A DNA stretch of 64,000 bases from NCBI RefSeq assembly GCF_054482525.1, contig NZ_CM137006.1; one strand, written 5' to 3'. A model generated the notes under the pieces. That model worked only from the letters and a program-made list of their open reading frames with translations, did not search any database and was not told the DNA's origin. Positions 1,209 through 36,050 of the stretch are shown piece by piece; the first letter of the stretch is position 1; the number at the start of each line of letters is the position of its first letter. Both the position numbers and the translations under genes were made by a program.

Positions 1209-2345
1209 ATGGATCTATTGATCGTTTTAACTTACGTGGCGCTGGCGTGGGCGGTCTTTAAAATCTTCCGCATTCCGGTGAATCAGTGGACGCTGGCGAC
1301 GGCGGCGCTGGGAGGCGTGTTTCTGGTGAGTGGTTTGATTTTGTTGATGAACTACAATCACCCTTACACTTTTACCGCGCAAAAGGCAGTGATAGCGATC
1401 CCCATCACGCCACAGGTGACGGGAATTGTTACTGAAGTCACTGACAAGAATAATCAGCTTATTCAAAAGGGCGAGGTGCTTTTTAAACTCGACCCGGTTC
1501 GTTACCAGGCGCGAGTTGACAGACTTCAGGCTGACCTGATGACGGCGACGCATAATATAAAGACGCTGCGCGCGCAGCTCACTGAAGCGCAGGCCAACAC
1601 CACCCAGGTTTCAGCGGAGCGCGACCGTCTATTTAAAAATTATCAACGTTATCTGAAAGGCAGCCAGGCGGCGGTGAATCCGTTCTCGGAACGTGACATC
1701 GACGATGCGCGGCAAAACTTCCTCGCGCAGGACGCGCTGGTGAAAGGCTCGGTGGCGGAGCAGGCGCAGATCCAGAGCCAGCTCGACAGTATGGTTAACG
1801 GCGAGCAATCGCAGATTGTGAGCTTAAGAGCGCAACTTACTGAAGCAAAATATAACCTTGAGCAGACTGTCATTCGCGCACCAAGCAATGGCTACGTTAC
1901 TCAGGTACTGATCCGCCCAGGTACATACGCAGCTGCCTTGCCGCTACGTCCGGTGATGGTTTTCATCCCCGAGCAAAAACGGCAAATTGTCGCCCAATTT
2001 CGGCAAAACTCGCTGTTACGTCTGAAACCCGGCGATGATGCGGAAGTGGTGTTTAACGCGCTACCTGGGCAGGTGTTCCACGGCAAACTGACCAGTATTT
2101 TACCTGTCGTGCCAGGCGGTTCGTATCAGGCGCAAGGGGTATTGCAATCATTAACGGTCGTGCCCGGCACGGACGGTGTGCTGGGAACCATTGAACTGGA
2201 CCCTAACGCTGATATCGATGCCTTACCCGACGGCATCTACGCCCAGGTGGCAGTTTACTCCGACCATTTCAGCCATGTTTCGGTGATGCGGAAGGTGCTG
2301 CTGAGAATGACCAGTTGGATGCATTATCTTTATTTGGATCATTGA
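1209..2345 (+). CDS. yibH: HlyD-family membrane fusion protein
   Basis: 378-aa ORF, N-terminal TM helix then coiled-coil-rich region typical of HlyD/EmrA family; starts 3 bp after yibI stop. Confidence 0.88.
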
Positions 2346-2442
2346 GTAGGGAAGGGGGAGATTATGGAACTTTGCTCCCTGTAAGGACTAATTATTTTTG
2401 CATATTACTTCATTGGCTGCGATGATTTTTCGTTAATATCCA

Positions 2443-2650
2443 TTATGTTAAGAAGTTCGGGATGAGTGTGAACTCATTGGATTTTTTATCCGTCTTGATC
2501 TGCCGAAGGATCAGACCATACATTGTCGAGATCGCAATGATGATATGAGTTGTTCCTCTGCCACGGCTCTAATCAAAAAAGAGCAGGAGTGCTTTTCCAT
2601 CTATTGCGATGATGGCTTTATTATCTGAAGGATGACAGTCACATTTAAAA
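2443..2650 (-). pseudogene. Remnant of H-repeat (ISAs1-family) transposase, truncated both sides and frame-disrupted
   Basis: Minus-strand translation gives DNKAIIAIDGKALLLFFD* and [33 protein letters not shown], resembling the conserved DKDVIAIDGKTLR...[32 protein letters not shown] core of H-rpt proteins (recalled, e.g. YhhI). Confidence 0.45.
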
Positions 2651-2923
2651 ATATTTAATTTATAGATCACAATGTAGGTTCATGTAATATATGTATACAA
2701 CTATTTTTCTCTTCACTTTTAATTATCGTATTCATTATAACACTAAGTTAAAAAACTCCTGGAGAGTGAGTCATTAATATATTTTTAAATATAATTAAGT
2801 TATTATTCATCGATGCATTTTATAGAATCATCAATGGCTACAATAGTACTATTAACTCTCCAATTTATATTTTTATTATCATTGCAAATATTAACTGAAT
2901 CTATATCAATGATTTTTTTATTT

Positions 2924-3319
2924 TTATCTTTTATTTACAGTTTCAATGCAATCAGCGACAAGTTGGTGTGGATTTAGATTCTTCAGATATGGTCTTATGA
3001 TCTTTCCCTTGCTTAATAAATAGCATGTATAGGATTCGGAAAGTCCAGCATCTATTTTGTACATCATTATTCTAGATAAGGATGTGAGAAATGCCTTGTT
3101 ATCATTAGCAGCCATATATGCCAGTCCGAGTTCAGCCTCTGCGGCTTTACATGAAAAATAGCTAAGTGAACACGCTTTTCGTCCCTCTTGGGTACTGGCT
3201 GATATTAGTGCCCATAATATTGCCTTGTCTGCCAAATCCAACTCTCTCTGAAATTGGTTTACAGTAACTGCATTCGCAGAAATAGAGAAAAAAAGCACAA
3301 TTGTTAATAACCTTGCCAT
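2924..3319 (-). CDS. Orphan immunity-like protein for the adjacent Rhs C-terminal tip; predicted signal peptide
   Basis: 131-aa ORF starting ATG 5 bp after the Rhs-fragment stop; N-terminus MARLLTIVLFFSISANA looks like a Sec signal peptide; AT-rich codon usage. Confidence 0.6.
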   Translation of the reverse strand: MARLLTIVLFFSISANAVTVNQFQRELDLADKAILWALISASTQEGRKACSLSYFSCKAAEAELGLAYMAANDNKAFLTSLSRIMMYKIDAGLSESYTCYLLSKGKIIRPYLKNLNPHQLVADCIETVNKR

Positions 3320-3323
3320 ATTT

Positions 3324-4133
3324 CTAGTCCGTCACTGTTAATGTGCTATCTGGCTCTGAAAATATTAGCTCATTTAATTTTTGCATGTCATTAGATGAAC
3401 CAGTTATACAACCCTCGGAACAGAATCGAGGTCCTAAAGATGGACCAAAAGCGTTTAAACAACTATGTGTTAAAAATCCATCACGATTATACGTTTCTGT
3501 ATTTGCTGACGGTACTAAACGTATACCATTAGGTTTTCTATTAGTTGCTCCAGGACCATTAACATTCCAGCTCCATACCCCTGGAGGTATTGGGCCTCTA
3601 TTTTGTAAGTGTGTACAACCAGGATTATTTTTACATTGCATATTATTACCATTATTACCAGAGGCGACTGAAATAGTAAGCACACCATAAGAATTATCAT
3701 CACTTGGCGTATCTGAAACGCATGAAAGCATACCTAAAGTTATGCTGTATAAACAGGTCGCTAATCCCAACGGGTCAATATCAGTTATCGGATTCAACGG
3801 ATACTGATAAAAATTCCATCCCCCCTTCAGTCCAATCGGATCCTGAGTGATATACCGCCCCTGCAGCTGGTGCGGGTTCTCTTCATTCAGCAGGTTGCCC
3901 CACTCATCGTATTCTGCGCACCATTCTGTTGCCCCTTCCGTGCTGATAAGCACCAGCGGCAGGCCGCGATGGTCGCAGTGGTACAGGTGGATTTTTCGCG
4001 CCGGCGTGTACACCGGGTCCATCTGGTTTTGCATCTGCGCCACCGTCAGGCCGCACGATGCCAGCCAGCGTCGGCTTTCCTCACTCACCCGGTCAGCCAG
4101 GATTTCACTTTCCAGCCGGTCGAGCATCTGCAC
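3324..4133 (-). CDS. Orphan Rhs C-terminal fragment (core end plus divergent toxin tip); no own ATG start
   Basis: Translation [29 protein letters not shown]...[18 protein letters not shown] is near-identical to the rhsA core end in this window, then diverges after the DPxGL motif into a unique Cys-rich tip; ORF-track start is a GTG that is an internal Val codon in rhsA. Confidence 0.7.
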
Positions 4134-4174
4134 CGTGCCGGCGGGAATACCTCACTGTGCATAGGCAACTCACG

Positions 4175-5017
4175 CTATGAACGCTTCAGCTTATCAATAA
4201 CGGAAGTTATAATTTCATTGTCATCAAACTTGTACAACATAGTATCTAAAACAGGAAGTAGCGTTTTATCACCTAATTCACCCGCAGCTTCAATGATATC
4301 ATCATAAACAGTATTTTTTTTTAACTCATCGCATAAAACAGATAAAACCCTTTTATCTTTTCTGTAGGAAAGTCCGATTATTGCTTCAATACGGACTTCC
4401 TCATTTTTATCCTGAAGCATCTCCACAAAATAATCCCTAATATCACTATTATCATATTTATTGATATTTATTGCAAATGCGGCCCAGTTTCTGACATCTC
4501 CATTTGGATCTTTTAACAGATTAATCAATAGTGGAATTGTTTCTTTATCATTGATAACAGAAATAGCAAATGCCGTAGCACGTCTGACATTAGCCGATTT
4601 ATCAAAAGCAGTAATTTGAGATTGTTCTACTATTTTAGGTGAATAAATTGGGTTTTTCTTGCATCGCTGAGCAGTTGACTCGATTGCTGTAGCTCGAACG
4701 CAAGCACTTTTATCATTCAGTGCCATCTTTTTTAAAATATTAAAAACGCTATCTTCGCATTTTTTGCAAACTTTTATTTGCCCGAGTATAAATGCTCCTA
4801 TATCTCTACGGATATAATTTTTGTCAGCGCAGAATTCAATTGCCAATCTAACAGCGTCTTGCCCACCTCTTAGCTGCAATACTCTGGCAGATGAAATCCT
4901 TTTCAATGAATTGCGATTATCAAGTAAGCGAAATAATTCATCATCATTTAGTTTCTTACATTGATTGTATAAACCATACTCTTTACTTGCCTTTCTTTTC
5001 TGGTATGTATTCGACAT
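4175..5017 (-). CDS. yibA: HEAT-repeat protein
   Basis: Translation MSNTYQKRKASKEYGLYNQCKKLNDDELFRLLDN... matches recalled YibA (280 aa); GGAGG RBS 8 nt upstream of ATG at 5017. ORF-track start at 5032 is a 5-codon extension. Confidence 0.85.
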   Translation of the reverse strand: MSNTYQKRKASKEYGLYNQCKKLNDDELFRLLDNRNSLKRISSARVLQLRGGQDAVRLAIEFCADKNYIRRDIGAFILGQIKVCKKCEDSVFNILKKMALNDKSACVRATAIESTAQRCKKNPIYSPKIVEQSQITAFDKSANVRRATAFAISVINDKETIPLLINLLKDPNGDVRNWAAFAININKYDNSDIRDYFVEMLQDKNEEVRIEAIIGLSYRKDKRVLSVLCDELKKNTVYDDIIEAAGELGDKTLLPVLDTMLYKFDDNEIITSVIDKLKRS

Positions 5018-5121
5018 TGCAGGAACCTCCATAAAGACTATCTTTTTCTATCGTTTGACTGTCTGGAGTCCTCCACCTACTCTGCCATCAGCACACACGA
5101 TGTTTGTTTATCCTTACATAC

Positions 5122-5391
5122 TTATTTTCCGTGGCCAAAATTTAGAATTCTCCCGTCATTTTTGCCTATTTCTATAATAAAAACCCTACCAGCAATTTGG
5201 TCTGATTCAATGGTGCCTTCAACAATCCAACTTGTTGGTAATTCCATGATTTTGTATGGTTTTTCTTCTTCTTCTTCGGCATCATGTCCATAACGATTTT
5301 TAACATACATCTCAGCTAATTCCAATGCTATAGCTTTATTTTTGACCAAATTTCTAACGGTGTATTTCCCCTCACTTTCATACTTGCGCAT
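5122..5391 (-). CDS. Small NTF2-like (YbbC/YhhH-family-like) immunity-type protein
   Basis: 89-aa ORF, ATG start; shares KxxAxxLAExYxKxxYG...KPY...W.xEG...DG pattern with the 115-aa ORF at 6994..7341 and with Rhs-linked YbbC/YhhH proteins as recalled; no clear RBS. Confidence 0.5.
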   Translation of the reverse strand: MRKYESEGKYTVRNLVKNKAIALELAEMYVKNRYGHDAEEEEEKPYKIMELPTSWIVEGTIESDQIAGRVFIIEIGKNDGRILNFGHGK

Positions 5392-5472
5392 TATAATAAT
5401 ATTATTACACTGCGCCCATGTGTTGTATGTAAAAATAAAGATACAATCACATAGGTTCTGAATAATATTTTC

Positions 5473-5838
5473 TTATACGTTGTCATGTATTTTGCAAACA
5501 TTAGGCAATCCTTTTCCATTTATTATATCTTTCCCATGATTATCTATTGCTTTAAAATTTTCACCTATTGACCTTGAATTACTACAATCACTTCCAGTGA
5601 AATCTGAGTTATTCAGAATAGCATTCATCAGAGCCGCATTGCGAAAGACAGCATTTCTAGTTGATGTATGTTGAATCATTACATTTCTTAAATGAGTTTT
5701 TTCAAATTTCGCCCCATCAAGACAATAACCATTGAGGGTGGCACGATGTAGATTCATCCCGCTAAAATCATATCCAGCAAGAGTGGTACTATCTATCTCA
5801 AGAAATTTATTGGTTATTAAAAATGCGATTCTTATCAT
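5473..5838 (-). CDS. Pentapeptide-repeat protein (orphan immunity-like)
   Basis: Translation shows consecutive pentapeptide-like units (ATLNGYCLDGAKFEKTHLRNVMIQHTSTRNAVFRNAALMNAILNNSDFTGSD); first ATG at 5838 preceded by GGAGGA RBS; ORF-track TTG start at 5850 is probably an extension. Confidence 0.6.
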   Translation of the reverse strand: MIRIAFLITNKFLEIDSTTLAGYDFSGMNLHRATLNGYCLDGAKFEKTHLRNVMIQHTSTRNAVFRNAALMNAILNNSDFTGSDCSNSRSIGENFKAIDNHGKDIINGKGLPNVCKIHDNV

Positions 5839-5931
5839 CTGTTCCTCCAATCATCTAACTCCCGAAAAATTTGAAAACCAGAACCTCGCTTAGGCCTGTG
5901 TCCATACTACGTGGGTAGGATTATTCTACGT

Positions 5932-5974
5932 ACTACGCTGTTGTCCCTTACGTGCTGATAAGCGCCAGCGGCAG
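5932..5974 (-). repeat. Isolated ~43-bp scar homologous to the Rhs core-end coding sequence
   Basis: ...gctgttgtcccttacgtgctgataagcgccagcggcagg aligns to rhsA at about 8775..8817 and to the orphan fragment at about 3935..3966, with mismatches; flanks are unrelated. Confidence 0.5.
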
Positions 5975-6090
5975 GTTATTCGGTTTGCGTCGTTGAGTTC
6001 ACTACACTAAAACTCCGTGCCCATATAACCCAAGTCGGAGGCATGCCTTCCTCTGGTTCGTTCCATCTAAAATGTCTATACATAACATGG

Positions 6091-6333
6091 TTATTCAATT
6101 ATTTTTTCTTTGAGTTTATTCTCAATCCAGCTGTCTTTATACCTGATGAAAATTTGACATTCACCAATATTATCAATGTCACCAACATTTGTGTTTCGAA
6201 TTTGACCAACAGCAACTATAGTTGATTCAAAATATTCAACATTGACATTATCTGTAATTATTGAAATTATATAATCATCTGGAATAGAGCCATTAGGAGT
6301 TATATTGAAGAAACTAACATCTGAAAATACCAA
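6091..6333 (-). CDS. Hypothetical small protein (80 aa), possible orphan immunity gene
   Basis: Open frame with only a TTG start and no internal Met; AT-rich; lies downstream of a decayed coding remnant. Weak call. Confidence 0.3.
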   Translation of the reverse strand: MVFSDVSFFNITPNGSIPDDYIISIITDNVNVEYFESTIVAVGQIRNTNVGDIDNIGECQIFIRYKDSWIENKLKEKIIE

Positions 6334-6559
6334 ATAACCATCTTCTAAGTCTTCATTATCATAAAAATTCCATTCTGTTGTACCATAGGCTATCCTTGAG
6401 ATTAAATTAACCTGAATTCTAATTTGTTTACTCCATAAATCAAATTCAATTTTTTATTGCTCGATCACCAAGATATATTCTATCAAACATATTACCCCCC
6501 TATTCTAAAAATACTCAGGCATTCCGCACATTATATCAGCCTCATCTTGATTGCTTCCC

Positions 6560-6840
6560 GTTTCCCAATACGGCGGCGCGGGGAGTCATAAAGGTAAGAA
6601 ATTTCCAGCAGTACGGCGTCCTATTGTTCACGGCGGTAATGCACCAGCCAGTATTGGCTATCGTAGTGATAACCGTGTAACCTGCCGCCGCATCGCGTAT
6701 CTAATGTTCATTCTTTTCCATAAACCGTCCGTACACATTGTGATAGTAAAAATACAATACATCTTCGCTGATGCGGTTATTCTGCTGCATGTGGGAAGCG
6801 CCGAATACTGCTCCCGGTATGGCCAGTAATTACTATTTAG
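6560..6840 (-). pseudogene. Decayed coding remnant (possible orphan toxin-tip fragment)
   Basis: GC-richer patch in AT-rich DNA; minus-strand frames give protein-like stretches (LAIPGAVFGASHMQQNNRISEDVLYFYYHNVYGRFMEKNEH*, AGYTVITTIANTGWCITAVNNRTPYCWKF...) broken by stops; ORF-track 67-aa and 92-aa ORFs overlap here. Confidence 0.3.
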
Positions 6841-6993
6841 TACGACGTTAGGGGGAGTCACTTAATCTCACAGATACTTCAAGTAACAGATGAAAATCGC
6901 TCCTGAAATGAAAAAGAAATTTTTTTGAATGTGTTCCTGTCAAATCAAGTGGTTTTTTCGTCGATATGTAGAGTCATATTGTACACAAAATAG

Positions 6994-7341
6994 TTACGAA
7001 ACACACCTTGGTAAAATATTTGAATCGTCTGAACAGTGGATTATTTTGTGTATTACATCCAACGCTTGCCCATCTTTTTTCGCTATTAGTATTGTAAAAT
7101 TTCCTCCTAACGTCTTCGGTTGTTTTCCCTCGATTTTCCAACAATTATTGTCATCTGTAATACTATATGGTTTCTGAAATTCTGCTTTTTCTTTCCCGTA
7201 TATATATTTAATATAAACATATGATAATTCCAAAGCCATTTCACGACTATTTACTAAAATTTCCGCTGAATTTTCTTTTCCAAATACTGAGTGTGATATT
7301 GTAAACAATATCATAATAAGTAATATTAGTGAGTTTCTCAT
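6994..7341 (-). CDS. Secreted NTF2-like (YbbC/YhhH-family-like) immunity-type protein
   Basis: 115-aa ORF, ATG with AGGTG RBS; N-terminal signal peptide MRNSLILLIMILFTISHSVFG; shares motif pattern with 5122..5391. Confidence 0.6.
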   Translation of the reverse strand: MRNSLILLIMILFTISHSVFGKENSAEILVNSREMALELSYVYIKYIYGKEKAEFQKPYSITDDNNCWKIEGKQPKTLGGNFTILIAKKDGQALDVIHKIIHCSDDSNILPRCVS

Positions 7342-7509
7342 GCTCTACACCTATCGAATCTCAAAAGTTGTGGGTAAAACATTACATTCAGAATATATGA
7401 TATTCTTACCATCGGAATCCATTTTTCCAAATCGACCTTCTGGTGTTCCTGGATACCCATTAAGAACATATTTTTTCGAATAGTTAATTTATTTTCTCAG
7501 GAAGAGATT

Positions 7510-8079
7510 TTATTTTTCTTCACTACGAAGTAGTTCATGCTGTACTTTTGTTAAACATTCGTAAGACTCATCTTTGTTCGGGAGATGTGCTGTCATTCGA
7601 GCATAAGTTGGCTTCTCATCTTTAAAATATTTAACCATGATTGAATTATCAAGGACTGCCAACAACTGAGCTGGATCACTGCTCTTTTTTTGATAGATAC
7701 CCGCTCTTATATAACTTCTAAACCGATCGCCGAGAAACGCCGTTTTTTCTGCTGTATTTAGCAACTCCTGCAACGTTCCTTTGGTTGCATGATTTTCATT
7801 AAGGCGTAGTGATCCGACGCGAATTAAGAGTCTCGCCCCGCTTGGTGTGAATTTGTTATTTTTACATATACCAAGCTCTGTTTGCCAATAATACTCACCT
7901 ATGTCCTCATTCTGATACCATCTCCACATGGTTTTATTATTTAAGACAGGAAACGCGGAAAAAATAGTACCCTTAGTGAAAATGGTAAAGCAATCTTGAT
8001 CTTTAGCTTGTGTTTCGCAATTAGCTATAACACCAAAACTAACGAATATCATCAGCAAAAAGAACAAAGCTCTTTTCAT
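7510..8079 (-). CDS. Putative cognate immunity protein of RhsA (secreted)
   Basis: 189-aa ORF whose ATG overlaps the rhsA stop by 4 bp (8076..8079); N-terminal signal peptide [19 protein letters not shown]; AT-rich relative to the rhsA core. Confidence 0.65.
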
Positions 8080-11000
8080 TTTCTTATTCCTCTCGATGTT
8101 CTCTGTTTCATTTTAGCTAAAATTTCACCCAAATCATCTATCCCTGCTGTTGCTGGCCCATCGGGTTTATTAATGTCTGGGAATAAATAGGGTTCTGCAC
8201 AAGTATATCCTGGTGGTAATTGAGTTGTTGGCCAAGTTGTCTGTGGCAGGTAATCACTTGCTGTCTTTGTCTCCATCCCTGGATACTGGGGATCATCCTG
8301 CGGCGTACAAGTCAGATTGGGTTTTACCCACTTCCTGCAATACAGTGTGTAATCGTAAGGACTTAATGCTCTGAAGAATGTTTTGAAAACATTAGGCGCA
8401 CTACTGGCCTGGTCAATAGGATATGGCAGTCTTAATTGTTTCGCTATGTCTGGCAACTTACTTGGATCGGGCGTAGGCGGTTTGTTGGGTCTCGCTCCAT
8501 ATCCGCCATTATTTAAGTGTCCATATTTAGATGCCAGTCCCATTGAATCTATATACTGAACCGGATTTAACGGATACTGATAAAAATTCCATCCCCCCTT
8601 CAGTCCAATCGGATCCTGAGTGATATACCGCCCCTGCAGCGGGTCATAATAGCGGTGGCGGTTGTAATACAGGCCTGACTCCTCATCATACTGCTGACCC
8701 GGCAGGCGGATGAGCTGCTGCAGCTGGTGCGGGTTATCCTCACTCAGCTGGTTACCCCATTCATCGTATTCTGCGTACCATTCTGTTGCCCCTTCCGTGC
8801 TGACAAGCGCCAGCGGCAGGCCGCGATGGTCGCAGTGGTACAGGTGGATTTTTCGCGCCGGCGTGTACACCGGGTCCATCTGGTTTTGCATCTGCTCCAC
8901 CGTCAGGCCGCACGATGCCAGCCAGCGGCGGCTTTCCTCACTCACCCGGTCAGTAAGGATTTCACTTTCCAGCCGGTCGAGCATCTGCACCAGCACCGGC
9001 GGGAACACCACATCACCACCGTCTTCACCGCCGGACTGCTGAAGCGCATCCGCCAGGCTGCGGCGCTGCGTTTTCGCCAGCTCACCGGTGGCAGTTTCAA
9101 CTCTGATGAGTGGCGTGAAGCTCCCCGGCTGATAAACCGTCTGGATGCGGGTTCTGTCGTTCTGTATCGTGGTCAGCCGGTCGCCGTCCCAGCCGTACCA
9201 GGTCACTTCCGGTTTCCGTGACAGCGACATCCAGCCCGTCAGGTCCCGTTCACGCCGCCACACCCGTTTTGCCACCCTGCGGCCCAGCGGGTCGTAAAGA
9301 TAGCGACTTTCGACCAGCGGCTCTGCATATTGTGTCCGCGTGTAGTGCACCAGCCGGTGCTGACTGTCGTAATGGTACTGGTGAGTCCGCTCATCATCCG
9401 TGCGGATAACCCCTTCCGGGATGAGGTCGGTTTTCTCTGTCAGCCTGCCGTGACGGTCATACCGGTAAAGATAGTGCGCGTCACGGGCGATACGGTTATC
9501 CGGCCACATGCTGAGGGTGCTGTCCGGGTGCAGCTCCGGGTCGGGCAGGCGGTTACCTGCCGGGTCTGTGGCATACGGGATGCGGATATCAAGGTTCGCT
9601 GCCGTGGTGTGAACGCCGGTCAGCCTGCCGGAGTCGCTGTAGCTGTAACTCCGGGTCTGGCGCGGGCTGCTGATGCGGATGAGTTCGCCGTTGTCGTTCC
9701 AGGTGTAATCGCGGTCATACTGCAGGCTGTTCAGATGCTGGCTCTGTAACTGCCCGGCAGGGGTGTAAGCGGTGGTGAGTTCATAACGGCCGAAGCTGCG
9801 CAGCGTTTCCCGGTGCAGGCGGTCGCGGGTGAAATCCACCAGCGGTGTGTCGCCGAGTTTCATGCCTGACAGCCAGCCGCTGCCGTAGGTCAGCCATTCC
9901 ACGGCGGGCAGGCTGTCCGGTATACAGCGGTTCGCCAGTCCCTGCGCGTTGTAAGCGTGTCTGGTTTCATGCTGCCAGAGCAGTGCTTCCGTCTGCGGGT
10001 GATGCACCGTCTGGCGCTCACCGGTCAGGCGGCCTTTCTCATCATACCCGTAATGCACCGTCACCCGGTGGCCTTCGCTGAGATGGCTGATTTGTGTCAG
10101 CCAGCCGCGTTCGTCATACTGCCACTGCTCTGCCGGTTCACCCTTCACGGTGCGGTGAGTGAGGCGGTCTGCTTCGTCATAGTGCCAGTGGGTGACCAGC
10201 CCCTCATCCTCGCTGCGGATAAGTTTGCCGGTCAGGTCGTGGTGATAACGCTGTGTGCGGCCGTCAAAGCCGGTTTCCTGTATCAGCCGGTCAAGTACAT
10301 CGTAACGGAAGGTGGTGTGGCTGCCGTTTTCACTGGTCAGGCGGATGACCCGTCCGGCAGCATCGTATTCCATACTGCGCGTCAGACCGCCCTGCGTGGT
10401 ACGGATGGCCTTTCCCCACGCATCGTACTGTGTCCCGTTTCTGCTGCCGTCCGGGGCAATGACGGCGGTCAGGTCACCGGCGGCGTTGTATTCATACCGC
10501 GTTTCATGGCCCTGCATGTCTTTCACCGCAATTAACTGTCCACGGCTGTCGTATGCGCGGTACTGGCTCAGGCCTTCCTCGCGGTGCACCGCCGTCACCT
10601 GACCAAAACGGTCATGGTCATAACGGGTTACATAACCGGAACAGTCAGTGACGGTCAGCAACTGACCGTAACGGCTCCATGTCATGGTTTTCCGGCTGCC
10701 GGTGGCATCCTCCGTTGCGCAGGGTAAGTCACTGTGTGGATTATCATAACGGTAGCGGGTGATATCGCCGTCAGGGGCAGTTTCCTGAATCAGACGGCCG
10801 GATTCATCATATTCCCGGCGTATTTCCAGCCCGTCAGTCCCGGTGGCTGACGTTAACTGGCTGTGGTGGTTATAGTAAAACGCCGATGCCCTGCCATCCG
10901 GCGTGGTGATGCGCGTGATGAGGCCCGTCACCACATCCGGGCTGTATTCTGTTGTCCGGCCTGCGGCATCCGTCTGTGCCTTAAGCCTGCCCACCGCATC

Positions 11001-12263
11001 AAACTGACTCTGCGTGACGCTGCCGTCCGCGTGTTCCTTTTTCACCACCCGCTTCAGCCCGCCTTCGCCCTGCGTGTGCAGCACTTCACGGCGGTCCAGA
11101 CTGTCGGTGATGGTGATGCGGTCTTTCTCATACTGATACGTGTAGCTTAAGCCTGCCGGGTTTAGCTGCTCTGTCACCCGCCCGTCGCTGTCGTAACGGT
11201 AACGGATTTCCGGCCGGCCCGTGTGACGGTGCGCCACCATCCGGCCCCGGTATTTATCATCGTAAGTAAAGCTGCGCACCTGTGTATTGCTGCGGTCATA
11301 CACCGCCGCCAGTTCGCCGCGCGGCGTCCAGCCATAGCGTACCAGCGGCGCGGCTGGCAGGTTATCCGGATATTCCGGGTCGTGCGTCAGCCACACGGCA
11401 GACAGACGGATGCCGTTGTCCCGGCCATATTCGGTGTAACCCGGCAGGGTATCAGGAAAAGCGGACGGTTCCGTCCCGCCGGAAATGGCCTGCTGCCGGG
11501 CTTCTTCTGCCCGCTGCGCCTGCGTGGTCAGTACCAGCCGGAAGTGACGCCCGGCACCATCCGTCACGCCGCTGAATTCGCCGCCAGCCTCACGGTGGAA
11601 CGTCTGTGTGCGCCCGAAGCGGTCCACCAGCCCGGTCAGTACCCGGTACGGCGGCAGCGGCGCAGGCAGCACCTCATCCGCCTCCGGCACCCGCTCACAC
11701 CAGCCGAGTACCCACCACGGCCCCTGCGGACTGTTCGTCGCCAGATAACGATGCGGACTCAGGCGAAGCTCTTCCGGCAGCGCCTGCCAGAGTGCGGCCA
11801 GCCGGTGACCTTCATCCAGTTTCGCCACGCCGCCACGCACCAGCCAGAGTGACTCGCTGCGGCTGTAACCGTCCTCACCGGGAAACAGGTGCTCAAAATA
11901 CAGGCTCCTGCCGCCGTTATCACTGAGTATCAGTGTGTTATCGCGCAGCTGTAAGCGGATATCCGCGGGCATTTTCCAGCCGGGGCCGAGGCTCCCCACC
12001 GGCGCGGGCGTTTTTGTCCGGTAACTGCTGTAGGTGCGGGAGAGGATGAACGGCAGCGGGCCGGGCAGGGCAAGGTCGGTTTCGCCGGGAAGGACCTTCG
12101 CGCCGAGCAGCGGATTGACCGGATGGCCGGACGTCACCCCGCCGGGGCACACCGAACAGGCCACGCCGGTGGGGGCACCGATGCGCACCCCGGCTGAACC
12201 CTGAACAATGCTACCGCCATACTGCGTCATGTCGCCCTGACGCGCCGCCGGTTTTCCGCTCAT
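8076..12263 (-). CDS. rhsA: Rhs-family polymorphic toxin: PAAR-like N-terminus, YD-repeat core, variant C-terminal tip
   Basis: 1395-aa ORF beginning [29 protein letters not shown], repeated YD/RY motifs, conserved [15 protein letters not shown] near the end followed by a ~170-aa proline-rich tip; sits beside yibF as rhsA does in K-12; GC-rich core. Confidence 0.95.
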
Positions 12264-12491
12264 CTGCTCATCCTTGTTTTATCGGGTTATTTGTCTGCTG
12301 ACAGGCGAAACCCTACAGATTTATAAGAAAGCCTTAAGTGAGATATCTGTCAGATAAGAACAATTAGGAAAATATTTATATCACCATGATAAATATCTGA
12401 TTTATTGGGAGGTAACAAACCATCAACATTTTCTGCCCTTTTTCCCATCACCAGGCCATACTGATATTTTTCCTCGCACAAAGGACTCGGC

Positions 12492-13100
12492 ATGAAACTC
12501 GTCGGTAGCTACACCAGCCCGTTTGTACGCAAACTTTCTATTCTGTTGTTAGAAAAGGGTATAACTTTCGAATTTATTAATGAACTGCCCTATAACGCGG
12601 ACAACGGCGTGGCGCAATTTAACCCGTTAGGGAAAGTGCCGGTGCTGGTGGCCGAAGAGGGCGAATGTTGGTTTGATTCGCCGATCATCGCTGAATATAT
12701 TGAATTAATGAATGTCGCTCCGGCGATGTTGCCGCGCGATCCGCTGGAGTCGTTGCGGGTGCGCAAAATTGAGGCGCTGGCGGATGGCATTATGGATGCC
12801 GGGCTGGTATCGGTACGTGAACAGGCGCGTCCGGCGGCGCAGCAGTCTGAAGATGAATTGTTACGCCAGCGGGAGAAAATCAACCGCAGTCTGGATGTGC
12901 TGGAAGGATATCTGGTCGATGGCACGCTCAAAACCGATACGGTCAATCTGGCGACTATCGCCATTGCCTGTGCCGTCGGATATCTCAATTTCCGCCGCGT
13001 TGCGCCAGGCTGGTGTGTCGACCGCCCACACTTAGTCAAACTGATCGAAAACCTGTTTAGCCGCGAAAGCTTTGCTCGCACCGAACCGCCAAAGGCTTGA
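12492..13100 (+). CDS. yibF: Glutathione S-transferase-family protein
   Basis: 202-aa [31 protein letters not shown]..., GST N-terminal thioredoxin-like motif; matches recalled YibF. Confidence 0.9.
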
Positions 13101-20630: not shown

Positions 20631-21072
20631 TATAACTCCTTTTATATATATTTAATAAAAATGCGTTTGATAAAAATATAGAAAATATTTATATATTAAC
20701 GCCTTATCATTGGTCATAGTTAATGTATAACACACAAAAAATAATGTTTGCACATTGTAAATACAATGGTGAAACAAACTTGATATTTATCAAGAAAATA
20801 AAACAATGTCTTTTATTGGTTGTTTTAAACGTCCAATGAATACGAGTTGGAGCTATAGCAAGACTAGCTTCGATATCGCATGGATAATCTAATACAGATT
20901 TTTTAACACCTAATACTATGAGTTATATGTAAATTGCGAGCATCCTCGCATCTTTTCAACAAGTTACTGCACACCGTTATTCTCCTTCCGAGCGAGTCAA
21001 CTTTATCCCCCTGACGGCCCATATAAATCGCGCTATCGTGATTGTTATCGCTAATTGTGTGTGTATCGTGTG

Positions 21073-21078
21073 TATAAT
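21073..21078 (+). promoter_or_regulatory. Candidate -10 hexamer (TATAAT) for hicAB
   Basis: Perfect TATAAT 18 nt upstream of the hicA start, followed by GGAAGGG RBS-like sequence; no convincing -35 identified. Confidence 0.3.
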
Positions 21079-21095
21079 CATGGAAGGGCAGGGAT

Positions 21096-21281
21096 GTGAA
21101 AAGTGCAGACGTGATCGCTATCCTGAAGCAGCATGGCTGGGAACATATTCGAACCCGTGGCAGTCATCATCAGTTCCGCCACCCTGTTCATCCGGGTCTG
21201 GTGACGGTTCCGCACCCTAAAAAAGATATTAAGCCCGGTACGCTGGCGCAAATTGGGCGTCAGGCTGGTTTAACATTTTAA
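21096..21281 (+). CDS. hicA: HicA-family mRNA interferase toxin
   Basis: 61-aa ORF (GTG start) with GSHHQFRHP...HPKKDIKPGTLAQIGRQAGL, the HicA/YcfA-like signature; followed by hicB. Confidence 0.8.
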   Translation: MKSADVIAILKQHGWEHIRTRGSHHQFRHPVHPGLVTVPHPKKDIKPGTLAQIGRQAGLTF

Positions 21282-21297
21282 AATTTCAGGAGGCAAT

Positions 21298-21708
21298 ATG
21301 TTTTATCCCGCCTATATCCACAGTGATCCTGACGGCAGCGCCAGCGGTTTTTTCCCTGATGTTCCAGGCTGTTATTTTGCTGGTGATACGCTGGACAACG
21401 CTTTCCAGGATGCGCGAAGTGCACTTGTCGCGCACTTCGAAACCTTATGCGAGATGAATGAAGAGTTGCCGCTTCCAGGCTCTGTGGAAACACATCTGGT
21501 CCAGCGTGCGCAGGACTTTATTGGCGGGCAATGGTTGCTGGTGGATATCAATATGAATCAGTTCGAAGGTCGGGCTGAACGTATCAATATTACGATGCCG
21601 AAAAGATTACTGAACAAGATTGATACCTACGTGCGCAATAACCCAGACTACGCCAACAGAAGTGCGTTTCTGGCGGAAGCTGCCCGGCGTGTATTGCCGG
21701 GCGCTTAA
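21298..21708 (+). CDS. hicB: HicB-family antitoxin with C-terminal DNA-binding region
   Basis: 136-aa ORF 17 bp downstream of hicA; N-terminal HicB-like fold sequence and C-terminal RHH-like segment (ITMPKRLLNKIDTYV...AFLAEAARRVL). Confidence 0.8.
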   Translation: MFYPAYIHSDPDGSASGFFPDVPGCYFAGDTLDNAFQDARSALVAHFETLCEMNEELPLPGSVETHLVQRAQDFIGGQWLLVDINMNQFEGRAERINITMPKRLLNKIDTYVRNNPDYANRSAFLAEAARRVLPGA

Positions 21709-21779
21709 TCCCGCGTTTCGATGGTTGGCGGGCAACCGCACCGATATGTTGATACTGATAAGACGCGTTAAGCGTCGCA

Positions 21780-23744
21780 TCATGCGCTGGTTTCCTCATT
21801 CACCCAGATCCGCATTTCGCCTTCACCCCGGTTAGCCCAGCTAAACCACGGGATAAATGTCAGAGTTTGCGGCTGGCGTTTGGCTGGGGCATAGTCGTAA
21901 TGCCACAGCGGTTGCTGCTCTGGATTGCTCTGTTCATACCGGTAACCCGGTGCCTGGATTAAGATCTTATGGCGGAACAATCCTTTGCCTTCAAATGTCG
22001 TAAATGGCGCATCGGCGGGCAGCCACAGGTTATGCAGTGACTCGCCGTTGTCGGCCTGTTCCAGGCAATACACCAGCGGGCCGCGCTGAATCGCCACTTT
22101 TCCGGCGACGTGACGCACCAGCGGGTTACCGTAAACGCGACGTACCGGCATTGGCAAAGTCAGATTCAGCGTGTCACCCTCCTGCCATTCGCGGGTAATG
22201 TGCAAATACCCTTTACGAATATCCTGCTCGACCTCTTCCCCATTCAATATGATCTGCGGCTGTGTGCACCAGTCCGGCAGACGTAAAGCCAGCGTATGAC
22301 GTACCGGCTGGGGCGATTCGACCGCAATCGTCACCTGCTCCTGCCACGGATAGTTCCCGCTAACCCGCAGGCGCAACGTGCCATTTTCTACCGGCACTTC
22401 CATGCTGTTTCCTGCGTAGATGTTGATATACAACGCATCTTCACGCGGCGTGTAGAGATAATGACCAATCGAGGTCAGCACGCGGGCGATATTTGGCGGA
22501 CAACAAGCGCAGCCAAACCAACGCTGGCGGATCGGTTTAACGTGATCGTAGATATGGTTGAATTTCAGCGATTTTGGATGTACTTCCAGCGGATTCACAT
22601 AGAAGAAATGTTTGCCATCCAGTGCCATGCCGCCGAGCACAGTGTTGTACAGCGCGCGCTCCATCACATCGGCATATTGACTGTCGCCTTCCATTTCCAG
22701 CATTCGCCGGGCGAACATCATCAGGCCGATGGAAGCACAGCTTTCGGCGTATACCGTGTCATTCGGCAGATCGTAATCGCTGCTGAACGCTTCGCCGCTG
22801 CTTTGTGAGCCAATGCCGCCGGTAATATATAACTGACGCTGGGCCATATTGTTCCACAGCCGCAGGCAATCCTGACGCTTGCTTTCATCGTGACTTAAAC
22901 GCGCCAGATGTGCGACGCCAGTCATCAGATATACAAAGCGTACTGCATGTCCGATGGCGGTTTGTTGCTGTGCGATGGGCAAATGCGCCTGGCTGTAGGC
23001 TTTATCTTTCACCATCCACGCCGGGCCGTAGGTGTGCCAGTGCGAGGTCTGCCCGCGCTTTTCATATTCCTGGTCGTAATAGTGCGGTTGCGCACCACGC
23101 TGTTCGACAAAATAGTTCGTCAGCGCCAGGTAGCGCGGCTCTTCGGTCACTTCATACAGGCGCATTAGTGCCAGTTCAATTTCCGGGTGACCAGGATAAC
23201 CGTGTAACTTACTTTCACCTGGACCAAATACGCTGTCGATATGATCGGCCAGACGGCAAACCACTTCCAGCAAGCGCCGCTTGCCCGTGGCCTGGAAGAA
23301 GGCGACTCCGGCTTCAATCAGATGACCGGCGCAGTAAAGTTCATGACACTCTGCCAGATTGCTCCAGCGTTCTTCGGGTGCTTTTACCGTAAAGTAAGTA
23401 TTGAGATAGCCATCTTCGCACTGGGCGGAAGCGACCAGTTCGATTACCTCGTCGGCGGTTTTTTCCAGTTCGGCGTCCGGCTTCTGGCACAGCGACCAGG
23501 CTACCGCTTCCAGCCATTTGGCGACGTCGCTGTCCTGAAACACCATCCCGTAAAATTCACCCTCCTGAAGTCCGGCGGCAATGCGAAAGTTTTCAATCGC
23601 ATGGCTGGGTTCCGCTTCTGGGATACGATCGTTCAAGGCATCCCACTGATAAGGAATCACCACGTCGCGGACCAGTTGTTGGTACTGACCGAGGAACGGA
23701 TCGCTGACCGTCAGTTTATGCAGATCGACTTCCGAAATGTTCAT
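21780..23744 (-). CDS. Glycoside hydrolase family 127 (DUF1680, beta-L-arabinofuranosidase-like) protein
   Basis: 654-aa translation from ATG at 23744 (MNISEVDLHKL...) with perfect AAGGAG RBS; Cys-rich C-terminal CACCPPN motif and overall similarity pattern to HypBA1-type enzymes as recalled; ORF-track 670-aa version is an extension. Confidence 0.75.
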   Translation of the reverse strand: MNISEVDLHKLTVSDPFLGQYQQLVRDVVIPYQWDALNDRIPEAEPSHAIENFRIAAGLQEGEFYGMVFQDSDVAKWLEAVAWSLCQKPDAELEKTADEVIELVASAQCEDGYLNTYFTVKAPEERWSNLAECHELYCAGHLIEAGVAFFQATGKRRLLEVVCRLADHIDSVFGPGESKLHGYPGHPEIELALMRLYEVTEEPRYLALTNYFVEQRGAQPHYYDQEYEKRGQTSHWHTYGPAWMVKDKAYSQAHLPIAQQQTAIGHAVRFVYLMTGVAHLARLSHDESKRQDCLRLWNNMAQRQLYITGGIGSQSSGEAFSSDYDLPNDTVYAESCASIGLMMFARRMLEMEGDSQYADVMERALYNTVLGGMALDGKHFFYVNPLEVHPKSLKFNHIYDHVKPIRQRWFGCACCPPNIARVLTSIGHYLYTPREDALYINIYAGNSMEVPVENGTLRLRVSGNYPWQEQVTIAVESPQPVRHTLALRLPDWCTQPQIILNGEEVEQDIRKGYLHITREWQEGDTLNLTLPMPVRRVYGNPLVRHVAGKVAIQRGPLVYCLEQADNGESLHNLWLPADAPFTTFEGKGLFRHKILIQAPGYRYEQSNPEQQPLWHYDYAPAKRQPQTLTFIPWFSWANRGEGEMRIWVNEETSA

Positions 23745-35947: not shown

Positions 35948-36046
35948 GCCGGATGCGGCTAAAACGCCTTATCCGGCCTACAAATTCTACCAAATTCAAT
36001 ATATTGCAGAAATCATGTAGGCCTGATAAGCGTAGCGCATCAGGCA
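35948..36046. repeat. BIME: two REP palindromic units in inverse orientation between ysaA and avtA
   Basis: gccggatgcggctaaaacgccttatccggcctaca and tgtaggcctgataagcgtagcgcatcaggca are typical E. coli REP sequences. Confidence 0.75.
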
Positions 36047-36050
36047 ATTT

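Follow-up and report, generated by a model that had tools for sequence, protein, structure and literature searches.

A decayed H-repeat of the ISAs1 family at the distal edge of the RhsA island in Escherichia coli

The closest intact relative that we found for the insertion sequence (IS) remnant described here is H-rptB, or ISEc1 (yhhI, b3484), which is located at the distal end of RhsB in Escherichia coli K-12; where the two overlap, 58% of the amino acids and 78% of the nucleotides are identical. H-rptB is a complete element of 1291 bp with 11-nt terminal inverted repeats (CAGGGAAAGAT...) and an open reading frame (ORF) of 378 aa, whose product, YhhI, consists of the domains DDE_Tnp_1_assoc (residues 8-94) and DDE_Tnp_1 (residues 102-343). 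Two ISEc1 copies were compared: the element measures 1291 bp and has CAGGGAAAGAT-type termini, while the stop codon of the transposase gene lies inside the right inverted repeat. Transposition of H-repeat elements has not been demonstrated (PMC3032704). In addition to this intact element, a degenerate one is known from the RhsA island of K-12, the pseudogene yibU (b4652), which spans 3,769,948-3,770,146 of NC_000913.3 (199 bp) and ends 97 bp from the yibH stop codon. A third setting is RhsC of K-12, where three defective H-rpt copies reportedly lie in tandem.

The DNA analyzed here, a stretch of 64,000 nucleotides of E. coli chromosome (the window), carries the orthologue of yibU, and thus of an already known H-repeat remnant of RhsA. 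Both loci share the same chromosomal position and a collinear sequence: from the end of yibH to the end of the immunity gene, the mean column identity between the window and K-12 is 95%, with about 94% for yibU itself, the end of which corresponds to window position 2443. We consider it very probable that positions 2347-2642 of the minus strand represent the non-functional relic of one single H-repeat/ISEc1-type IS of the ISAs1 family, which once was the last distal component of RhsA.

An earlier note, made from the letters of the sequence, had proposed an H-rpt/ISAs1 transposase remnant at 2443-2650. This reading was confirmed by several lines of evidence, and its coordinates turned out to be good to a few bases for the central fragment, with DNA homology extending from 2418 to 2642. 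We performed the search suggested there, employing the K-12 H-repeat transposase YhhI (b3484, from NC_000913.3) as tblastn query against the whole 64-kb window. One significant match was obtained (E 1e-18), in which YhhI residues 96-160 align to positions 2640-2446 of the minus strand with 38 of 65 residues identical (58%). A second significant YhhI match was not found in the window, the next best hits being located in other places with E-values of 2.8 and 9.5. On the DNA level, H-rptB matches 2642-2418 with 78.4% identity over 227 nt (blastn, E 2.6e-47). Furthermore, the NCBIfam profile NF033564 (transpos_ISAs1) recognizes the relic with an E-value of 7.5e-12 over profile positions 69-133 of 314, and Pfam DDE_Tnp_1 matches the relic frame with an E-value of 0.0036. 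Both scores fall below the curated cutoffs, namely 45 vs 70 bits for the full-length cutoff of NCBIfam and 17.5 vs 23 for the Pfam gathering score. This is expected, because only 65 of 314 profile positions, about a fifth, remain. Consequently, the assignment to the ISAs1 family by transposase homology rests on the E-values and the DNA alignment. If the search is extended to 5,426 complete E. coli genomes, all paralogous ISEc1/ISAs1 copies align to the same span (query positions 19-243 of window 2400-2680).

Translation revealed that both peptides quoted in the earlier note share one minus-strand frame (start 2922). The interruption by a stop mentioned there is real as well: an in-frame TAG at 2571-2569 separates the two peptides, and TAA at 2445-2443 closes the frame (Table 1). 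The central fragment contains the AIDGK motif and covers only the first quarter of DDE_Tnp_1, beginning directly after DDE_Tnp_1_assoc. The 5' part of the element (IS nt 1-426) is gone together with the left inverted repeat, and the flanking spacer shows no IS similarity if Smith-Waterman scores are compared with those of shuffles. A step in GC content at 2642/2643 coincides with the 5' truncation point. Of an intact transposase ORF of ~378 aa with both domains, no more than residues 96-~169 and the last ~9 codons can be recognized. Absent are the left inverted repeat, the N-terminal domain and profile positions 134-314, and an NCBIfam scan of the three minus-strand frames of 2346-2923 found no additional ISAs1 match. 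The label 'frameshifted', given by PGAP to the orthologue in strain Z142-2, agrees with the 1-nt deletion at 2434..2435.

The earlier note had further described the remnant as truncated on both sides. This holds for the 5' side, whereas on the 3' side we found an internal deletion, since the last ~38 nt of the element survive at 2389-2353 or 2389-2347. Positions 2389-2353 of the minus strand align with IS nt 1254-1290 with 27 of 37 identities and a score of 17, compared to 6.9 +/- 1.2 and a maximum of 12-13 in 2000 shuffles. The C-terminal codons within this piece read VLTGSKVP* (VLAGSGLS* in YhhI), and the TAA stop is aligned at 2364-2362. In an ungapped alignment the IS terminus is located at 2352, and if a 5-nt insertion in the G-run is allowed, it is located at 2347, where TAGGGAA[GGGGG]AGATTAT is opposed to the right inverted repeat CAGGGAAAGATTAC; by manual count both placements tie in score. 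The candidate for the right terminal inverted repeat is thus either AAGGGGGAGATTAT or the gapped version, compared with CAGGG(C/A)AAGATTAC, in a match that is short (37-43 nt) and ambiguous by 5 nt in its exact terminus. The ISAs1 copy of strain GF131 is 96% identical to ISEc1 and consequently provides no independent check of this right end. Between both pieces, at 2390..2417, the IS has lost roughly 600 nt (about nt 654-1253), and the relic as a whole retains ~265 of 1291 nt. Judged by these alignments, it is a 5'-truncated element with an internal deletion of about 600 nt. The right-end relic beside the yibH stop codon is absent from every annotation that we have seen, and this surviving terminus at the island junction is one of two additions of this work.

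Table 1. Features of the ISAs1-family relic and its surroundings (window coordinates).
Feature	Position	Strand	Basis or remark
Junction of core chromosome and RhsA island	2346..2347		yibH stop at 2343-2345; empty-site comparison
IS right-end relic (IS nt 1254-1291)	2347..2389	-	Collinear local alignment
Internal-deletion junction, 28 nt of no assignable origin	2390..2417	-	No IS alignment beyond 2418 or 2389
Central fragment, ISAs1-family (H-rpt/ISEc1-like)	2418..2642	-	IS nt ~427-653 of 1291; YhhI residues 96-~169
1-nt deletion vs ISEc1, frame shifted	2434..2435	-	Gapped DNA alignment: GGATATT-AACG vs GGATATTAAAGG
Second in-frame stop, TAA	2443..2445	-	ATG (Met161) there in ISEc1
In-frame stop, TAG	2569..2571	-	Position of YhhI Lys119 (AAG in ISEc1); same stop in K-12
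AT-rich spacer, 160 bp, 20% GC	2643..2802		From Imm57 stop to IS fragment; no detectable IS similarity
Imm57-family immunity gene, frameshifted near 2924	2803..3319	-	PGAP; intact with 173 aa in Z142-2; context only

The genomic position of the relic was determined by comparison with genomes that lack RhsA. Such genomes match the window only to 2346, one base past the yibH stop codon. In ABU 83972 the empty site consists of yibH, 70 bp and yibF, and BLAST aligns it with window 2100-2346 and 12455-12875. The island thus comprises 2347-12454 and stands in place of 32 bp of the yibH-yibF spacer seen in the empty site, in a gene order of mtlA, yibI, yibH, RhsA island, yibF, selA and selB. Its rhs core gene spans 8076-12263 on the minus strand, while orphan modules and yibA are located between the core gene and the relic. 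The relic itself lies inside the island, downstream of core, tip and immunity modules, as expected for H-rpt as an accessory Rhs component. It was proposed before to mark the distal edge of the Rhs accessory region, and indeed it is the last component of the island. Likewise, its location between yibH and the orphan Rhs module was described correctly, with yibH (1209-2345) on one side and the Imm57 and RHS/Tlde1 genes on the other.

The right end of the IS is found 0-5 nt from the junction 2346|2347. Because the outer end of the putative right inverted repeat comes this close to the border of island and chromosome, one might speculate that the IS itself created the distal RhsA junction together with its 32-bp spacer replacement. 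This may have happened through transposition into the spacer, or through an adjacent deletion or rearrangement mediated by the IS end. We regard this idea as tentative and rather unlikely. If true, the junction would be footprint evidence of formerly active H-repeats that helped to place or anchor Rhs islands. A right terminus at the junction fits the long-held view of Rhs elements as composites with an H-repeat at their outer end, and an IS terminus at the core junction offers a concrete site for asking how Rhs islands were assembled. Besides, as a stable marker the relic indicates the distal RhsA end in about two thirds of E. coli; otherwise it matters little beyond a tidy annotation. In other strains, insertions of IS66 (ISCro1), IS5 or IS1 were observed in or beside the relic and the spacer, so that this junction is a recurrent IS landing site.

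For the AT-rich DNA at 2650-2923, the earlier note had considered further decayed sequence. We found none that could be ascribed to the IS: neither 2643-2802 nor 2803-2923 reached Smith-Waterman scores against the IS better than those of shuffles, and an ISAs1 protein match was not obtained for 2643-2923. The part from 2803 to 2923 is the 3' tail of the frameshifted Imm57 gene, and the correct assignment of the AT-rich DNA at 2643-2923 is the second addition of this work. The 131-aa ORF at 2924-3319 holds the whole Pfam Imm57 domain (E 6.9e-45), while YibV of K-12 comprises only 111 aa. Since the domain is complete and its K-12 counterpart is that short, the frameshifted Imm57 gene may still be working. 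Together with a single ORF of 269 aa at 3324-4133 of the minus strand, in which the end of an RHS core (Pfam RHS) is fused to a Tlde1-domain toxin, the Imm57 gene at 2803-3319 forms the orphan Rhs module. In strain 1190, PGAP splits 3324-4133 into a 'tlde1 domain-containing protein' and a frameshifted RHS fragment.

Among 5,426 complete E. coli genomes, about 3,700 possess an orthologue of the relic with at least 90% identity. The allele of the window belongs to a minority class, with 35 genomes at 99% identity or more and 322 at 95-99%, while most genomes are K-12-like at ~94%. Strains such as PCN033 show 100% identity with the window over 1900-3400, and strain 1190 and others do so over 2300-3000. 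Outside E. coli, an exact 30-mer from the invariant block delivered 0 matches in a set of one genome per species, a search that is uninformative for diverged orthologues. PGAP annotates the relic in one of the two genomes inspected: in Z142-2, the equivalent of 2435-2640 is listed as 'ISAs1 family transposase; frameshifted; internal stop; incomplete; missing N-terminus and C-terminus', whereas the relic has no annotation in strain 1190, which is identical to the window over the stretch compared (1.5 kb).

The parent IS was probably a member of a distinct ISAs1 lineage and not a copy of ISEc1 that decayed later. This reading is based on two comparisons. First, the relic shares 78% DNA identity with ISEc1, while RhsA and RhsB agree at 94.7% of positions over the 5' part of yibA. 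Second, the differences between the relic and ISEc1 are distributed over the codon positions as 20/9/23, with fewest at second positions. Both comparisons suggest a separate ISAs1 lineage, in which some of the divergence had accumulated before the gene lost its function. A closer intact lineage was not detected: a search for homologous proteins yielded nothing but short ORFs of E. coli that had been predicted on this relic in various contexts, and in plasmid records the best tblastn identities were ~60-62% (ISEc1 type) with three exceptions. These exceptions, E. coli records with ~81-82% identity in tblastn, two of them Mb-sized and filed as plasmids, appear to be copies of the same relic. We also considered an O-antigen GT4 gene as a context of origin, as the draft contig GCA_021998715.1 joins such a gene to the relic over ~20 shared nt, resulting in a chimeric ORF of 105 aa. 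In complete genomes the glycosyltransferase gene is intact and part of an apparent O-antigen gene cluster beside cpsG and gndA. This candidate was rejected; the join is a probable assembly chimera or one-off microhomology rearrangement and delivers no evidence on the origin of the relic.

Some further observations concern the RhsB locus. Window 4671-5104, which comprises the 5' part of yibA and sequence upstream of it, is 94.7% identical to a segment of K-12 RhsB with the pseudogene yrhC. This RhsB homology extends precisely to the left inverted repeat of H-rptB, which indicates that a yibA homologue was formerly present in RhsB and was cut short where the H-repeat inserted. In strain ST2747, the RhsB island mirrors RhsA in its content, with yibA, an orphan RHS fragment, a sel1/yibG-like gene and an IS630 scrap, followed by an incomplete ISAs1 gene. 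Finally, window 35962-36049, in the intergenic region of ysaA and avtA, is ~79% similar to the K-12 sequence just beyond H-rptB and probably represents a REP-type repeat.

From these findings we infer the following course of events. An ISAs1-family IS would have resided distally in the RhsA island, oriented like rhsA, as H-rptB does at RhsB. It has lost its first ~426 nt, and with them the left inverted repeat and the N-terminal DDE_Tnp_1_assoc domain, as well as ~600 internal nt that held most of the DDE domain. Two pieces are left: a central one of 225 bp (IS nt 427-653, residues 96-169) and the last ~38 nt with the stop codon and the candidate right inverted repeat. Given two in-frame stops and a 1-nt deletion in the central piece, the remnant can neither encode a transposase nor be mobilized as a unit. 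It drifts neutrally, and about two thirds of E. coli inherit it as part of the island. The divergence between the window and K-12 is consistent with such a drift: it amounts to 5.8% (13/225) in the central fragment, 5.7% in the 71-bp segment that separates this fragment from yibH and 5.0% in the spacer, compared to 6.8% at the fourfold-degenerate sites of the adjacent yibH. The relic thus seems to diverge in a neutral-like manner, at about the synonymous rate of yibH, with the reservation that counts are small (13 substitutions).

Alternatively, the relic or the AT-rich spacer might have been co-opted for regulation, be it through a sigma-70 promoter at 2722-2751, from which transcripts would cross the relic and run antisense to the 3' end of yibH, or as a 3' UTR/terminator for the convergent yibH and Imm57 genes. 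We consider this improbable. In the spacer, the minus strand contains sigma-70-like hexamers (TTAACT-18-GATAAT at 2751-2722) as well as an extended -10 motif, TGnTATAAT (TGTTATAAT), at 2742-2734, and these hexamers point through the relic toward the 3' end of yibH. The same hexamers, TTAACT/GATAAT, were described for an in vitro RpoD-holoenzyme binding site of K-12 that lies between yibV and yibU and is directed toward yibU (Shimada et al., 2014; PMC3946193). However, promoter-like sites are not more frequent in the region than in shuffles (7 vs 5.8 +/- 2.4), a terminator scan of the region revealed no terminator-like hairpin, and an Rfam E-value search found no family in 2000-3500. Moreover, the K-12 allele lacks the TG of the extended -10 motif, and relic and spacer diverge at about the synonymous rate. 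AT-rich DNA acquired horizontally commonly binds RNA polymerase spuriously, which weighs against a regulatory role as well. Hexamers of the RpoD type in DNA of 20% GC are thus most likely incidental, even though the in vitro site of K-12 upstream of the relic leaves room for transcription through it.

Even less probable, to a degree that we hardly credit it, is a functional small protein derived from the transposase and encoded by one of the short minus-strand ORFs over the relic (26 aa at 2443-2523 or 33 aa at 2569-2670). Both ORFs exist, and in many assemblies of E. coli, gene callers have placed small 'hypothetical proteins' on the orthologous sequence. However, these predicted proteins differ in their N-termini, owing to IS5 insertions or the K-12 frameshift, and share only the relic sequence, so that there is no conserved ORF. 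In addition, the K-12 allele shifts the frame inside the region, the divergence looks neutral, and apart from the transposase fragment neither Pfam nor NCBIfam matched. The weakest alternative, that the ISAs1 similarity is a product of chance or of the composition of AT-rich DNA, could point to scores under the curated full-length cutoffs, but is already refuted by the tblastn and blastn E-values obtained in a search space of 64 kb and by the local DNA alignment of relic and IS, which scores 211 against a mean of 21.6 and a maximum of 30 for shuffled sequence, the relic in addition having a GC content of 40%, like the IS, while the adjoining spacer has 20%.

Two observations were made elsewhere in the window. 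At ~20,650-23,300 (201,109-203,273 in the record of strain 1190), a type I restriction endonuclease gene and a hicA/hicB toxin-antitoxin pair were found between aldB and a glycoside hydrolase/MFS transporter pair, and this group of genes looks like a small accessory insertion. Furthermore, the rhs core ORF at 8076-12263 of the minus strand lies 3 nt higher than the mapping of the PGAP annotation of strain 1190, while yibH shows no such offset. A 3-bp indel may therefore separate the source of the window from strain 1190, somewhere in 5,000-8,000.

Taken together, the very probable H-repeat relic of RhsA can be placed among its described counterparts as follows. With H-rptB it shares the role of last component of an Rhs island and the same orientation as the rhs core gene, whereas H-rptB is complete. 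With yibU of K-12 it has in common its position, its orientation relative to rhsA and the in-frame TAG. In contrast to the window, the K-12 allele contains an extra 1-nt insertion (GCAGGAGGAAC vs GCAGAGGAAC) that shifts the frame. As this insertion is absent from the window, the allele described here can be read over 65 codons with only one stop and has decayed slightly less. The annotated yibU feature (199 bp) covers the central fragment only. A further counterpart is found in RhsB of strain ST2747, where PGAP annotates a C-terminally incomplete ISAs1 gene beside yhhJ. There, the match to K-12 resumes 47 nt before the right end of H-rptB, so that the right terminus appears to be retained beside the core chromosome. 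In ST2747 it is the N-terminal part of the transposase gene that is preserved, in the window a central piece. The relic, the ST2747 gene and the defective H-rpt copies said to occur in RhsC are all deleted or interrupted and all located downstream of toxin/immunity modules.
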